NCBI GenBank assembly: GCA_031396695.1
Contig: JANNLG010000171.1
Span: 6,053-70,052 of the forward strand
DNA from: Deltaproteobacteria bacterium
Lineage (GTDB): Bacteria; Myxococcota_A; UBA9160; SZUA-336
Direction: 5' to 3'
Length of the DNA stretch: 64,000 nucleotides
In this document: positions 12,061 to 38,689 of the stretch, in pieces
How positions within the stretch are numbered: the first letter of the stretch is position 1
How the letters are laid out: every line of letters starts with the position of its first letter
Position numbers and translations under genes: made by a program
The notes under the pieces: generated by a model
Database searches by the model: none
Told to the model about the DNA's origin: nothing
What the model saw: only the letters and a program-made list of their open reading frames with translations

Positions 12061-12861
12061 ATGCGAGTCGAACGCATTCCGACGCTGCGCGACAACTACA
12101 CGTACCTGGTGATCGATCCGGCTTCGAACGAGGCGGCGGTGATCGACGCGCCGGAGGCCGCGCCGGTGATCGCGCGCGTCGCGAAGCTCGGGGTGCGCGT
12201 GACGAAGGTGATGTCGACGCACCACCACCTCGATCACAGCGGCGCGAATCCCGAGCTCGCCGCGCACTTCCGCGCGCCCGTGATCGGACACGCCTCCGAC
12301 GCCGCCCGCATTCCGGGCTTCACCACCGGCGTGGAGGAAGGCGAGCGCGTGCGCGTCGGCGCGCTCGAGGCCGACGTGCTGTTCATCCCGGCGCATACGC
12401 GCGGGCACGTCGCCTACGTGTTTCCCGGCGCCGTGTTCTGCGGTGACACGCTCTTCGCCGGCGGCTGCGGGCGGCTCTTCGAGGGCACCCCGCAGATGAT
12501 GCACGAGGCGCTGAACGTGAAGCTCGCGAAGCTCGCCGACGCGACGCTCGTCTACTGCGGGCACGAGTACACGGAGGCCAACCTGCGTTTCGCGCTCACG
12601 CTCGAGCCGGGCAACTCGGCGCTCGCCGCGCGCATCACGACGGTGAAGGCGCGCCGCGCGCACGCCGCGAGCGATTGGCACGACGCGACGGAGGCGGAGA
12701 TGACCGTGCCCTCGACGCTCGCCGACGAGCGCGCGACCAATCCGTTCATGCGTACGTCGGCGGCGGAGCTCGTCGCGAGCGTGCGCGCGCAGCTGCCCGG
12801 TACGTCGTCCGATCCCGTCAGCGTGCTCGGCGCGGTGCGCGCGCTGAAGGACAAGTTCTGA
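12061..12861 (+). CDS. gloB: hydroxyacylglutathione hydrolase (glyoxalase II)
   Basis: Full-length track ORF. The segments DNYTYLVID, the STHHHLDHSG metallo-beta-lactamase motif, GHEYT and NPFMR are typical of GloB. Confidence 0.9.
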   Translation: MRVERIPTLRDNYTYLVIDPASNEAAVIDAPEAAPVIARVAKLGVRVTKVMSTHHHLDHSGANPELAAHFRAPVIGHASDAARIPGFTTGVEEGERVRVGALEADVLFIPAHTRGHVAYVFPGAVFCGDTLFAGGCGRLFEGTPQMMHEALNVKLAKLADATLVYCGHEYTEANLRFALTLEPGNSALAARITTVKARRAHAASDWHDATEAEMTVPSTLADERATNPFMRTSAAELVASVRAQLPGTSSDPVSVLGAVRALKDKF

Positions 12862-13508
12862 GCGAGCGCTGCTCATTCCTCGGGCTGTTCGCGTTGCTCT
12901 TGCTCTTGCCGATCGGTGCGTCCGCGGATCTCGGCCATCGACCGGAAGATCGGGTCACGCTCACACACGTCGACAACCAGGTCATCGCCGTCACCGCGTC
13001 GGGCTTCGCGGCGGTGCTCTCGAAGCTCGAGCTCGGCGAGTCGGTGATCGCGCTGCGCAGTCAGGGCAACGTCGGCGTCGCGGTCACGACGCGGCGCCTG
13101 CTCGCGATCCAGACCCGCGCCGCCAATTTCGTCGAGCTGCGCTACCGCGTTTCCGAGTCCGCGCCGAGCGAGCACGACCTGCAGGTGCGCGACGGCCTGA
13201 TCGTCGCCGCGTTCCCGGCGCGGATCCTCGCCTTCTCGCCGCAGATCGCCGCCTGGCAGGAGTTCGGGCTCGGGCCAGGCGAGAAGCCGATCGAAGTGAT
13301 CGCCGAGCAGAACGTCGCGGTGGTCGTCACGCCGCGCCGCGCGGTCGCGTTCTCGCCGCTCTCCGCCGGCTTCGTGCCTTATCCGCTGACGCCCGGCGAG
13401 GATCCGGAACGCAGCACGCTCGGCGACGACTCGATCACGCTGATCCTTCCGCACCGGGTGCTGATCTTCCGCGCGGGCGACTCGGCCTGGTCGAGCGTCA
13501 ATCGCTGA
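12858..13508 (+). CDS. secreted hypothetical protein with about five internal repeats (start uncertain)
   Basis: Tail of track ORF 12675..13508. A signal-peptide-like N-terminus (L/M)SERCSFLGLFALLLLLPIGASA-DLG begins exactly at CTG 12858, which overlaps the gloB TGA. Alternative starts are TTG 12894, which would cut the signal peptide, or ATG 12675, which would overlap gloB by 187 nt. Confidence 0.6.
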   Translation: MSERCSFLGLFALLLLLPIGASADLGHRPEDRVTLTHVDNQVIAVTASGFAAVLSKLELGESVIALRSQGNVGVAVTTRRLLAIQTRAANFVELRYRVSESAPSEHDLQVRDGLIVAAFPARILAFSPQIAAWQEFGLGPGEKPIEVIAEQNVAVVVTPRRAVAFSPLSAGFVPYPLTPGEDPERSTLGDDSITLILPHRVLIFRAGDSAWSSVNR

Positions 13509-13530
13509 GATTTCCGAGCTGTCGAGGCGT

Positions 13531-13545
13531 TGACGATAACCGTCA
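13531..13545. promoter_or_regulatory. inverted repeat TGACG-N5-CGTCA (candidate enhancer-binding-protein site)
   Basis: Perfect 5+5 inverted repeat, TGACGATAACCGTCA. It lies about 120 bp upstream of the sigma-54-type promoter at 13654, within a non-coding gap. Confidence 0.3.
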
Positions 13546-13653
13546 CCGGACTGACGGATCTGGTCCACATCGGGCCCTGCAGCGAGGCCGCGACAGTGTC
13601 GCCAGGCTCGAATATCCGCGGACTTCGTCGCGTCTGGTGCGTATGGCATACGT

Positions 13654-13669
13654 TGGCACGCCTGATGCA
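13654..13669 (+). promoter_or_regulatory. sigma-54 (-24/-12) promoter candidate
   Basis: TGGCACGCCTGATGCA compared with the consensus TGGCACG-N4-TTGCW has correct GG/GC spacing and a single mismatch (ATGC for TTGC). It lies 37 nt upstream of ATG 13706. Confidence 0.5.
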
Positions 13670-13705
13670 AATCCTCAGGCTCGAAACAGAGGGGAGCATT
13701 TCGGC

Positions 13706-13930
13706 ATGGCACTGGTCGCGCACACGCTCAGGAATTTCGAGTCCGCGGAGCAGATCGCGGAGCCCGGCCACCCCGAGACGCTCACCCTGCTCGACCTTGT
13801 TTCTGCAATCGCGGACGAGGCCGAGACCGACGAAGAGGTCGTCGCCACGATCCAGCATCTGATCGAGACTGGAAAGGTCACCCTGGTCGGGAACTTCCGC
13901 TCGAACGACGTCGGCCGACGCAAGGACTGA
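13706..13930 (+). CDS. hypothetical small acidic protein (74 aa)
   Basis: ATG 13706 has GGGGAG 9 nt upstream. Product: MALVAHTLRNFESAEQIAEPGHPETLTLLDLVSAIADEAETDEEVVATIQHLIETGKVTLVGNFRSNDVGRRKD. Composition is non-shadow. No family recognised. Confidence 0.55.
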   Translation: MALVAHTLRNFESAEQIAEPGHPETLTLLDLVSAIADEAETDEEVVATIQHLIETGKVTLVGNFRSNDVGRRKD

Positions 13931-13943
13931 GCGCCGCTCAGAC

Positions 13944-15086
13944 CTACAGAGCCTTCGCCGCCTCTTCGAGCGCGACCACCACGTGATAGACGCTGGTCGC
14001 GTTCTGCGCGTCCGAGATCACGCGCCCGTCGCGCGCGAGCTGCTCGAACCAGCCGTGCGTCTTGGGATCGACGTGACGAGCGAAGCAGTAGCGCAAGCCG
14101 GCTTCCAGCTCGCGCCGCGCGATCGCGTCGCCCGTCGCCCGCGCGCGCGCGGCCAGCGCCTTGACGCGCTCGGTCTGCGGCCACAGTCGCTTGGTCACGG
14201 CGAGCGTCCGGCCCTCGGCGTCGATCTGGTCGAAGACTCCGCCGTCGGTGTCGACGCCCAAGCGGCGGCCGAACTCGAAGAGCCGATCGGACAGCGCGCG
14301 CGCCGCGTCGCTCGGCGCGAGCGACTGCAACCGATCGAGCAGCCAGACCCACTCGAAGTGATGCCCGGGCTCGACGATGCGCCCGGCATCGCCCGCGAGC
14401 GGCCGCCAGTGGGAGTCGAAGTGTTCGCCGAGCGCGCCCGTGCGCGCGTCGAGCCAGCGCGCGCCGAGCAGCTCCACGAGCGAGCGCGCGTCGCGCAGCG
14501 CGCCGCTGTCGGGCGCGACCTCGGCCAGCACCAGTAGCGCCTCGACCAAGTGCATGTGCGGGTTCTGTCGCCGCGGCCCCGCGAGCGGCTGCCAGTCCTC
14601 GCTCGCGGTCTCGAAGAAGCCACCCGAAACGGGATCGCGCAGCCGTTCGCGCAGGAGCTCGAGCGTCGCGCTCGCCAGCCGCAGGGACTCCGGCTCGCCG
14701 CTTGCCCGGTGGTGCTCGGCGAGCGCGAAGATCGCGAACGCATGCCCGTACAGATCCTTGCGTCGGTCGAGCGGCGCGCCCGCCTCGTCGGTGGTGGTGA
14801 ACCAACCGCCGAAGCGCGGGTCCCAGAAACGCGCGTGCAGGAACTCGAGTCCGTGCGCCACCGCGTTTCGCGCCCACGCGCCGGCGCCAAGTTCCGACGC
14901 GCGCGTGAACGCGAAGATCTGGCGCGCGTGGACCAGGAGTCGCTTGTGACCGTCGGGCAGCGGCGCCAGATCGGGTCCGAGCCGGTTCCAGTAGCCGCCG
15001 CGGTTGCGATCGAGACCGTGCCGTTCCCAGAGCGGCAGCAGCTCGTCGACCAGATGCGCGCGCAGCGTCAGGCGCGAGTGCTGCAT
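13944..15086 (-). CDS. AGE-family epimerase/isomerase (N-acylglucosamine 2-epimerase / mannose-6-P isomerase-like)
   Basis: ATG 15086 (MQHSRLTLRAHLVDELLPLWERHGLDRNRGGYW...). Shows the repeated (alpha/alpha)6-barrel pattern with KRLLVHARQIFAF, KDLYGHAFAIFALAE, NPHMHLVEALL, PGHHFEWVWLL and RLWPQTERVKA. Confidence 0.85.
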   Translation of the reverse strand: MQHSRLTLRAHLVDELLPLWERHGLDRNRGGYWNRLGPDLAPLPDGHKRLLVHARQIFAFTRASELGAGAWARNAVAHGLEFLHARFWDPRFGGWFTTTDEAGAPLDRRKDLYGHAFAIFALAEHHRASGEPESLRLASATLELLRERLRDPVSGGFFETASEDWQPLAGPRRQNPHMHLVEALLVLAEVAPDSGALRDARSLVELLGARWLDARTGALGEHFDSHWRPLAGDAGRIVEPGHHFEWVWLLDRLQSLAPSDAARALSDRLFEFGRRLGVDTDGGVFDQIDAEGRTLAVTKRLWPQTERVKALAARARATGDAIARRELEAGLRYCFARHVDPKTHGWFEQLARDGRVISDAQNATSVYHVVVALEEAAKAL

Positions 15087-36137: not shown

Positions 36138-37219
36138 ATGAAAGAAACCCTCGAGCGCATCGACGACATCCTCGGATCGCTCCGCGTGGGGATCCTCGCG
36201 ATCGATGCGGACGGCCGGGTCGAGCTCGAGAACCCCGAGGCGAGCCGGATCCTGGGCCAGTCGATCGTGGCCGCGGTCGGCCGCCCGCTCCACCAGGTGC
36301 TCGGCCGCCAGCACCCCGCGAGCGCCCTGCTCGAGACCGCGCTGCGCGAAGGCCGGGCGGTTTCGGAGCACGGCTGCCTAGTGCCCGATCGGATGGGTGG
36401 CCGGCCGCTGGTGGTCGATCTGTCCGCGGCCCCGATCGGACGCGGCAGCGAGGTGCACGGCGCCGTGCTCTCGCTCAGCGACCGCACGATCGGCGTCGAG
36501 CTCGAGGACCTGCTCGGCCAGCGCGCGCGCTCCGAGCTGTTCGCGCAGCTCGCGGCCGGCATCGCGCACGAGCTGCGCAACCCGCTGTCCGGCATTCGCG
36601 GCGCGGCCGACCTGCTGCTGGGCAAGCTCCCCGAGTCGAGCCTCGCGCGCTACCCCGAGCTGATCCGCGCGGAAGTCGATCGCATGCGTCGGCTGCTCGA
36701 CGACCTGGCCGAGCTCACACGCGGCGGCGACCTGCGCCCGCGCCGCGCCAACCTGCACCGCGTGATCGACGACGTGGTCGAGCTGCACAGCCACTCCGAG
36801 ACGTGGCAGGGCATCAAGATCGAACGCAGCTACGACCCGAGCATTCCCGAGTTCGAGTTCGACCCCGACCGCACCACGCAAGTGCTGTTGAACCTGATGC
36901 GCAACGCGGTGCAAGCGATGGCGGGCAGCGGCACGCTCACGCTGCGCACGCGCATCGAGTCGGCGTACCACTTCGAACACGTCGGGCCCGAGCGCGCACG
37001 GCTCGTGCGCATCGACATCCAGGACACCGGCCCCGGCATTCCCGACGAGGACCTGCCGCTCCTGTTCACGCCGTTCTTCACGCGCCGCAGCTCCGGCACC
37101 GGGCTCGGTCTGGCCGTCGCTCAAGCCTGGACCGTGAAGCAGGGCGGGCGGATCCTGGTGCGCAGCCGCGCCGGAGAAGGAACACGCATGCGTGTAGAGC
37201 TGCCCCTCCGGAAGCCGAC

Positions 37220-37223
<4 letters not shown>
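36138..37223 (+). CDS. PAS-domain sensor histidine kinase (NtrB-like)
   Basis: Full-length track ORF. A PAS-like N-terminus is followed by the H-box AAGIAHELRNPLSGI and the N/G boxes (LLNLMRNAVQA, DTGPGI, GTGLGL). Confidence 0.85.

Positions 37224-38685
<1,462 letters not shown>

Positions 38686-38689
<4 letters not shown>

Follow-up and report, generated by a model that had tools for sequence, protein, structure and literature searches.

A small gene at positions 13706 to 13930 of a 64,000-nucleotide stretch of DNA from a Deltaproteobacteria bacterium (contig JANNLG010000171.1, positions 6,053 to 70,052; this whole stretch is referred to as the window) encodes a 74-amino-acid (aa) acidic protein, and this protein is a member of a large unannotated family that has a sigma-54 promoter as its common feature. 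In Myxococcota-like lineages the family provides the first gene of an operon in which it is followed by top6B and top6A, the genes for the two subunits of topoisomerase VI (topo VI), and the window copy is most likely the remnant of an operon of this kind from which top6B and top6A (top6BA) were cleanly lost. We consider this identity and history of the gene very probable. A preliminary description of the window had presented the gene as an orphan and a candidate regulator or anti-factor; the finding is more interesting than an orphan small open reading frame (ORF), and the protein is no demonstrated regulator.

Bacterial topo VI is poorly understood, and here a conserved small protein is encoded directly upstream of top6B in many uncultured Myxococcota-like bacteria, with the unit of small gene, top6B and top6A sitting behind a sigma-54 promoter with a conserved activator site. 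The window offers a natural experiment in which the topoisomerase genes are absent and the promoter and small gene are kept under selection, which suggests that the small protein does something on its own. With more than 2000 clusters and no Pfam entry, the family is a testable candidate for research on the sigma-54 regulon, on type IIB topoisomerases and on small proteins.

Linkage to topoisomerase VI genes

With a DNA pattern back-translated from the conserved core of the protein, 91 further loci were recovered at one genome per species, all related loci being metagenome-assembled. The ORFs neighbouring the small gene in 94 loci were clustered, representatives were scanned against Pfam and a tblastn context table was built, in which + marks loci with top6B after the small gene and - marks loci with no top6B after it. 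Genes top6B and top6A were the next same-strand genes in 49 of the 94 loci, with a median gap of 76 nucleotides (nt) between the small gene and top6B. Pfam identified the downstream genes by Topo-VIb_trans (1.5e-61) together with a GHKL ATPase domain and by TOP6A-Spo11_Toprim (1.7e-59) together with TP6A_N. Starting from Top6B homologues, the small gene and its promoter were found directly upstream in 2/3 sampled loci; one topo VI operon (L106) was without the small gene. The small protein and Top6B co-diverged over 36 operons (Spearman 0.68), with 0/999 permutations as high in a Mantel test. Both Top6B and Top6A of these operons start with long K/R-rich tails, the N-terminal tails of Top6B being 15-40% K/R.

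The small gene was found in three kinds of context. The order in context A was ComM, sigma-54 promoter, small gene, top6B, top6A, rmlA and rmlC (41 A+ loci), and six A- loci had ComM, promoter, small gene, rmlA and rmlC with top6BA cleanly missing. The small genes of these A- loci are still coding-like, with 17/13/33 variable sites by codon position and a median ratio of nonsynonymous to synonymous substitution rates (dN/dS) of 0.45. Context B, to which the window belongs, has the order gloB, a hypothetical gene of about 204 aa, promoter, small gene, top6B, top6A and a convergent epimerase gene. It comprised eight B+ loci, together with L104, which was found from the Top6B side, and nine B- loci including the window, in which the flanks and the promoter are as in B+ and no top6 genes follow the small gene. 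Context C consists of stand-alone copies in variable neighbourhoods, mostly of a distinct type (V-N-x-G ... G-T-F-K-G-A-R-F-D-L), found in metagenome-assembled genomes (MAGs) labelled Binatia, Gemmatimonadetes and others, about half of them with a sigma-54 promoter. Copies of this type often occur two per genome with no conserved neighbours (MAGs VBKG01, DATILR01, CAWESA01), in one case 2.7 kb apart on a single contig (L036 and L041 on CAYQNV010000056.1).

No homologue of Top6A, Top6B or ComM was found by tblastn in the 64-kb window. The order small gene, top6B, top6A and convergent epimerase is present in L069, L101, L096 and L104, and the gene order of L104, L069, L075 and L101 matches that of the window on both sides of the small gene. 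In L104, L069 and L101, top6BA lies between flanks shared with the window (PD-(D/E)XK nuclease, GloB, hypothetical gene, convergent epimerase), and the sequence TTGACG-N5-CGTCAC at -123 is common to the window and the top6BA-bearing L104, L069, L075 and L101. The small gene, promoter and -123 activator site of the window are orthologous to those of topo VI-bearing loci. By parsimony, the unit of small gene, top6B and top6A would be the older state, and at least two losses would have removed the topoisomerase genes while the promoter and small gene were retained. The gene had been described as monocistronic and as the sole cargo of a promoter dedicated to it. The evidence supports the small gene as the only gene that the sigma-54 promoter can serve in this genome; the monocistronic state is nevertheless secondary, because close relatives have small gene, top6B and top6A all under the control of this promoter and activator site, and the promoter is accordingly not dedicated to the small protein.

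A Qxx[LFMI]x[LF] motif was present in 27/47 Top6B N-terminal extensions, compared to 0.35 expected in shuffles (L013-L101), with examples such as QLVLGL, QESFAF, QRSLPL and QPSLPF (e.g. L019, L033, L032, L096, L013). It is followed by a K/R-rich tail of 40-130 aa and resembles the bacterial beta-sliding-clamp-binding motif. A paper on EndoMS/NucS mentions topoisomerase VI as well as a clamp-binding motif (PMC8228993). Five loci (L016, L069, L075, L096, L101) have 36-40 nt between the small-gene stop and the top6B ATG, and there a short G/C stem-loop (CCCTCACC...GGGGGGTGGGG), its sequence varying by locus, lies over the Shine-Dalgarno region of top6B. Its folding energy is 0.8-2.0 standard deviations better than that of shuffles, and it may or may not matter for translational coupling of top6B. 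In one topo VI-less context-B locus (L047, QJZC01000004.1) the C terminus encoded by the small gene is truncated and divergent (…RVRLQACELPL) and overlaps the epimerase gene or ends close to it, and decay of this copy is possible.

The small gene and its protein family

Judged by its conservation, the small ORF is a genuine protein-coding gene because homologues exist, substitutions follow a coding-type pattern and the ribosome-binding site is conserved. The start at ATG 13706, the GGGGAG 9 nt upstream and the 74-aa translation given in the preliminary description all agree with the sequence, and the ORF ends with TGA at 13928-13930. This short start is the right one; alignment of orthologous upstream regions favours ATG 13706 with the AGAGGGGAGC ribosome-binding site. 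The longer version had rightly been set aside, but it opens with GTG 13637 and not with ATG, the in-frame ATG lying at 13643, and both codons are 5' of the -24 element. The window has a G+C content of 71%, and the values by codon position in the small ORF (GC1/2/3 = 0.69/0.38/0.85) are typical of coding sequence in such genomes; a composition of this kind commonly gives rise to the many long overlapping ORFs that are present in other frames and on the opposite strand.

Variable sites by codon position numbered 17/11/36 over 42 core codons. The dN/dS of the small gene was 0.027 compared to L007, the closest species, with medians of 0.36 in topo VI-less loci and 0.40 in topo VI-bearing loci, all calculated by NG86 with a dS that is probably lowered by strong codon bias at this G+C content, so that the ratios are too high if anything. 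The amino-acid conservation holds across lineages with a dS of about 0.3-1.0. Conservation, substitution pattern and synteny with the promoter in related genomes, which the preliminary description had proposed as checks on the gene, all came out in its favour. A non-coding RNA identity for the region was considered and rejected, an Rfam scan giving no significant match and a sole match at E = 0.76. The start-codon region ATGGCACTGGTCGCGCA (13707-13722, + strand) matches the sigma-54 pattern with one mismatch; orthologues read ATGACCCAGGTC, and the match is not conserved and was taken as chance.

The gene is no orphan. A search of 5.8 billion proteins returned 59 homologues, all of 68-87 aa and all unnamed or "hypothetical", the named ones being from MAGs with the label Myxococcota or Deltaproteobacteria. 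When 1.84 billion cluster representatives (50% identity) were searched with a profile, 943 clusters matched at E<=1e-3, nearly all of them with lengths of 60-100 residues, and 117 matched at 1e-10; a separate profile search of the clusters at 90% identity gave at least 2164 homologue clusters. The statement that the protein has no recognisable family holds as far as named families go, since the window protein had no match in Pfam or NCBIfam, and fails in that a large unnamed family exists. Among 88 family members no consistent match to Pfam or NCBIfam was found at E<=1 and no Pfam helix-turn-helix (HTH) family at E<=0.01, and a sequence-profile search of the PDB with the small protein gave a best match of E = 0.13, which assigns no solved structure. 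A phage origin was rejected, the back-translated core pattern being absent from viral contigs, as was a domain fusion, a profile search having detected the small domain within neither Top6A nor Top6B.

The protein is strongly acidic, as first described, with a pI of 4.62 and a net charge of -8, and the family shares this character (median pI 4.8; 91% of members below pI 7). Residues 1-22 are variable and a conserved core spans about residues 23-68, laid out as a helix (~28-38), an acidic loop, a second helix (~42-54) and then G-x-V-x-L-x-G-N-F. The alignment has a variable N-terminal third and a near-invariant core reading P-E-T-L-T-L-L-D-L-V-x-A-I-A-D-E-A-E-T-D-E-E-V-V-A-T-I-Q-H-L-I-E-T-G-K-V-T-L-V-G-N-F. 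AlphaFold models built from the 88-sequence alignment had a mean predicted local distance difference test (pLDDT) score of 72, with two confident helices (block pLDDT 83-90) and with the N terminus and the conserved G-K-V-T-L-V-G-N-F-R segment poorly defined. Foldseek gave no significant match to the predicted model; the best, non-significant ones were small winged-helix domains (DEP domain, cullin WHB, ORC and MukF winged helices). The modelled fold may be weakly winged-helix-like, a fold that had been named beforehand as an informative one. It shares with these domains the order helix, helix, beta, but the core has two confident helices and not three, and C-type members are without the N-terminal region.

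Sigma-54 promoter and upstream activator sites

The sigma-54 promoter proposed upstream of the gene is real as judged by comparative sequence analysis, because the element is conserved across orthologues and family loci. The element TGGCACGCCTGATGCA is the sole exact TGGCAC-N6-TGCW match in the 64 kb, where shuffles expect 0.14 and 14/100 shuffles have at least one, and taken alone the match is only suggestive. It agrees with TGGCAC-N5-TTGCW at 10/11 scored positions at the exact spacing. A promoter element TTGGCACGCC(T/C)GATGC is kept in 7/8 orthologous upstream regions. Promoters were scored by a simple consensus count in the 90 non-redundant loci that had sufficient upstream DNA, over up to 300 nt upstream on the strand of the gene, and a -24/-12 match of at least 9/11 was found in 75/90 family loci compared to 2/90 on the opposite strand and 41/920 random windows. 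By class such a promoter was present in 36/41 A+, 6/6 A-, 8/8 B+ and 9/9 B- loci. Where the start of a homologue had been assigned too far 5', its sequence includes W-H-x-x-C, the in-frame reading of TGGCAC-N5-TGC. The usual spacing from the -12 element would place the transcription start near 13680, and a scan of 13300-14200 found neither a sigma-70-like promoter nor an intrinsic terminator. The leaders of L006 (5785-6015) and L012 (1226-1456) carry a 29-nt insertion between promoter and ribosome-binding site with an inverted repeat CGCTCA-N6-TGAGCG, absent from the window and the other orthologues.

Upstream of the promoter, the segment 13530-13568 contains two sites of the form TGAC-N7-8-G(T)CAC in tandem. 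TGACG at about -123 and CGTCA at about -113 from the promoter were both present in 15/18 context-B loci, and TTGACGATAACCGTCAC is the only exact copy in the window. The second site, in which CTGACGG and (G/T)CCAC are conserved in the upstream alignment, pairs with the first as inverted repeat I1. In context A, two analogous sites of the form GTG(A/T)C-N7-8-G(A/T)CAC are present at around -100 to -130. Downstream of the activator sites and ahead of the promoter, the A+T-richer block GGCTCGAATATCCGCG is kept in the window, L007, L004, L010, L006 and L012 and may be a DNA-bending site. No further copy of the activator site was found in the window, two-mismatch matches being at chance level, and an RpoN-box motif was not found within the 64-kb window. 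A GAFTGA motif search detected no enhancer-binding protein gene beside the small gene in about 100 loci. The sole NtrC-type enhancer-binding protein gene in the 64 kb (~37200-38689, + strand) encodes REC, Sigma54_activat (1.5e-69) and HTH_8 domains.

The promoter architecture itself is that of an ordinary NtrC-type sigma-54 promoter. Common to both are the GG/GC elements at canonical spacing, two inverted-repeat sites two helical turns apart and about 110-125 nt upstream, and the lack of a sigma-70-like promoter in the region. The system differs in that no activator gene lies close to the small gene in about 100 loci and in that the ancestral cargo is a type IIB topoisomerase, for which no link to RpoN was found in the papers searched. 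The literature search likewise found no paper that links topo VI with sigma-54 in myxobacteria.

Function and alternative explanations

The explanation that we prefer, and which we hold as a whole to be slightly better supported than its negation, runs from the promoter to a partner of the protein. An enhancer-binding protein would bind the sites at 13530-13568 and, with the sigma-54 promoter, give rise to a short monocistronic mRNA for the 74-aa acidic protein. The top6B and top6A genes would have been lost cleanly while the promoter, activator sites and small gene were kept under purifying selection, and since the gene is so kept without top6BA its protein would have a value independent of adjacent topo VI genes. 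The core might form a minimal module of winged-helix-like type, with a protein and not DNA as its binding partner. One sigma-54 activator would co-induce the small protein with the DNA-topology function of the circuit, which the protein would modulate; ancestrally that function would be topo VI, both subunits of which have long basic N-terminal tails, and the activity of the protein would stay useful where adjacent topo VI genes are missing. The functional part of this explanation, a partner-binding modulator of a co-induced chromosome-topology function, is tentative. The earlier suggestion of a regulator or anti-factor is neither shown nor excluded and is one possibility among several.

Small protein modulators of type II topoisomerases are represented by YacG, GyrI/SbmC and the MfpA/Qnr DNA mimics. 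The family has in common with these proteins a small size, an often acidic character and a genetic association with a type II topoisomerase; no relation in sequence or fold was detected, and the hypothetical target here is a type IIB enzyme. In a 2024 survey at least 17 bacterial families had topo VI, among them Anaeromyxobacteraceae, Vulgatibacteraceae and Polyangiaceae, and the topo VI-bearing families outside Pseudomonadota and Terrabacteria were reported to be without topo IV (PMC11302465). A further-reaching possibility, rather doubtful at this stage, is that the family is an unrecognised partner or regulator of bacterial topo VI, or acts in a broader sigma-54-controlled chromosome-topology response. 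If so, in the many Myxococcota-like lineages where topo VI is reported to replace topo IV as decatenase the expression of the enzyme would hang on sigma-54 and one enhancer-binding protein, the small protein would couple the signal of the activator to decatenase activity, and a second role would explain its survival after topo VI loss.

Several points weigh against the preferred explanation. Stand-alone family copies (17-27 loci) mean that a topo VI-specific role cannot be general, and the locus set, gathered through the conserved core, is biased to conserved copies. The dN/dS values are probably affected by the lowered dS noted above. The enhancer-binding protein gene of the window lies 24 kb from the small gene with no matching activator site near it, and expression, transcription start and activator were all deduced from sequence. 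The direction of loss rests on parsimony, the midpoint-rooted GloB tree being ambiguous, and topo VI genes could lie elsewhere in the genome, of which 64 kb were covered.

This last point bears on the alternative that topo VI has the protein as an obligate subunit, accessory or regulatory, which in this genome acts in trans on topo VI genes that have moved elsewhere. The operon linkage in 49/94 loci and the co-divergence with Top6B are consistent with such a subunit, as are the pairing of an acidic small protein with two subunits bearing basic tails and the window spanning just 64 kb. The 2024 survey concluded that the role of topo VI in bacteria needs further work and considered accessory proteins of unknown identity possible, the plant topo VI accessory proteins RHL1 and BIN4 being reported as absent from bacteria (PMC11302465). 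Like RHL1 and BIN4 the small protein would be a non-catalytic protein genetically tied to topo VI. No sequence relation to them was found, they bind DNA in vitro whereas the small protein is acidic, and the small family persists without adjacent topo VI genes, its topo VI interaction being putative. The window has no Top6A or Top6B, however, and five scanned species-representative B- MAGs had no second family match, which is weak evidence against a second operon led by the small gene. Lone copies also occur in MAGs of groups outside the 17 topo VI-bearing families (PMC11302465), and one topo VI operon (L106) lacks the small gene. We regard an obligate subunit acting in trans as rather unlikely.

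A little less probable again is that the protein is a feedback modulator, either anti-activator or co-activator, of the enhancer-binding protein of its own promoter, and is kept since that activator controls further operons. Proteins from sigma-54 promoters that feed back on their own activator are known in PspA, acting on PspF, and HrpV, acting on HrpS, and the small protein shares with these a sigma-54 promoter and the position as first gene of the regulated unit. Such a role would fit the sigma-54 promoter as the most general feature of the family, the retention of promoter and small gene as a unit after cargo loss in two contexts and a small acidic protein that is no obvious DNA binder. 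Against it, the examined DNA of about 100 loci contained no activator gene, and no other operon with the same activator site was found in the window. The protein has no sequence or fold relation to PspA or HrpV, and the feedback is hypothetical.

The history of the locus could also be reversed, with top6B and top6A inserted in relatives after a pre-existing stand-alone small gene and the window representing the ancestral state. A neighbour-joining tree of GloB puts the topo VI-bearing loci in one clade, with uncertain rooting, and horizontal transfer is regarded as the route by which topo VI spread in bacteria (PMC11302465). On loss versus gain, neighbour-joining trees of GloB and of the 204-aa protein are ambiguous. 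We favour loss because gain would need top6BA to land behind the same small family in two unrelated contexts, on the GloB side and on the ComM side; the co-divergence of small protein and Top6B and the promoter and activator-site architecture common to both contexts also argue against gain, which we consider improbable.

A sequence-specific DNA-binding transcription factor of the winged-helix type would have the order helix, turn, helix, strand seen in the core, but is very improbable given the net charge of -8 and family median pI of 4.8, the just two confident helices modelled with an acidic loop between them, and the lack of any Pfam HTH family in 88 members at E<=0.01. Least credible is the alternative that the ORF has no function as a protein, being a decaying relic or a non-coding leader, for which the truncated L047 copy and a coding status that depends on sequence comparison could be cited, and which the amino-acid conservation at a dS of about 0.3-1.0, the 17/11/36 codon-position pattern, the conserved ribosome-binding site, the lack of a significant Rfam match (sole E = 0.76) and the recurrence of retention in two contexts all contradict.

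Flanking genes and features of the locus

The left flank of the small gene in the window consists of a hexapeptide-repeat gene, a PD-(D/E)XK nuclease, a BFD-like ferredoxin, GloB and the 204-aa gene, and the right flank begins with the epimerase gene, which is convergent as first described, has its stop codon at 13944-13946 and is also the flank in topo VI-bearing relatives (Table 1).

Table 1. Positions of the small gene, its control elements and its neighbours in the window
Feature	Position	Strand	Basis and remarks
Hydroxyacylglutathione hydrolase GloB	12061..12861	+	Pfam HAGH_C 2.1e-22, Lactamase_B 6.4e-16; conserved left flank of context B
204-aa hypothetical gene	12894..13508	+	Conserved left neighbour in context B; gene calls in L001, L004, L010, L012; tblastn synteny
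Upstream activator site 1, palindrome TTGACGATAACCGTCAC (TGACG-N5-CGTCA)	13530..13546	+	123 nt 5' of -24 element; presumed enhancer-binding protein site
Upstream activator site 2 TGACGGATCTGGTCCAC	13552..13568	+	Centre 22 nt (two helical turns) from centre of site 1
A+T-richer conserved block GGCTCGAATATCCGCG	13605..13620	+	Between activator sites and promoter
Sigma-54 (-24/-12) promoter TGGCACGCCTGATGCA	13654..13669	+	GG 13655-13656, GC 13667-13668; conserved in orthologues
Shine-Dalgarno GGGGAG	13691..13696	+	9 nt 5' of ATG 13706; AGAGGGGAGC kept in orthologous loci
74-aa acidic small protein coding sequence	13706..13930	+	Homologues, dN/dS, codon-position pattern, GC by position, AlphaFold models
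Junction, small-gene stop to epimerase stop	13931..13943	.	13 nt; relatives carry top6B and top6A (~3 kb) here
Convergent GlcNAc 2-epimerase family gene	13944..15086	-	Pfam PF07221 5.6e-71; 380-aa gene call in identical contig L001

The 204-aa protein had no match in Pfam or NCBIfam. Its N terminus is signal-peptide-like (LFALLLLLPIGASA), and its body resembles repeats of a short strand motif ending in A-F-S.
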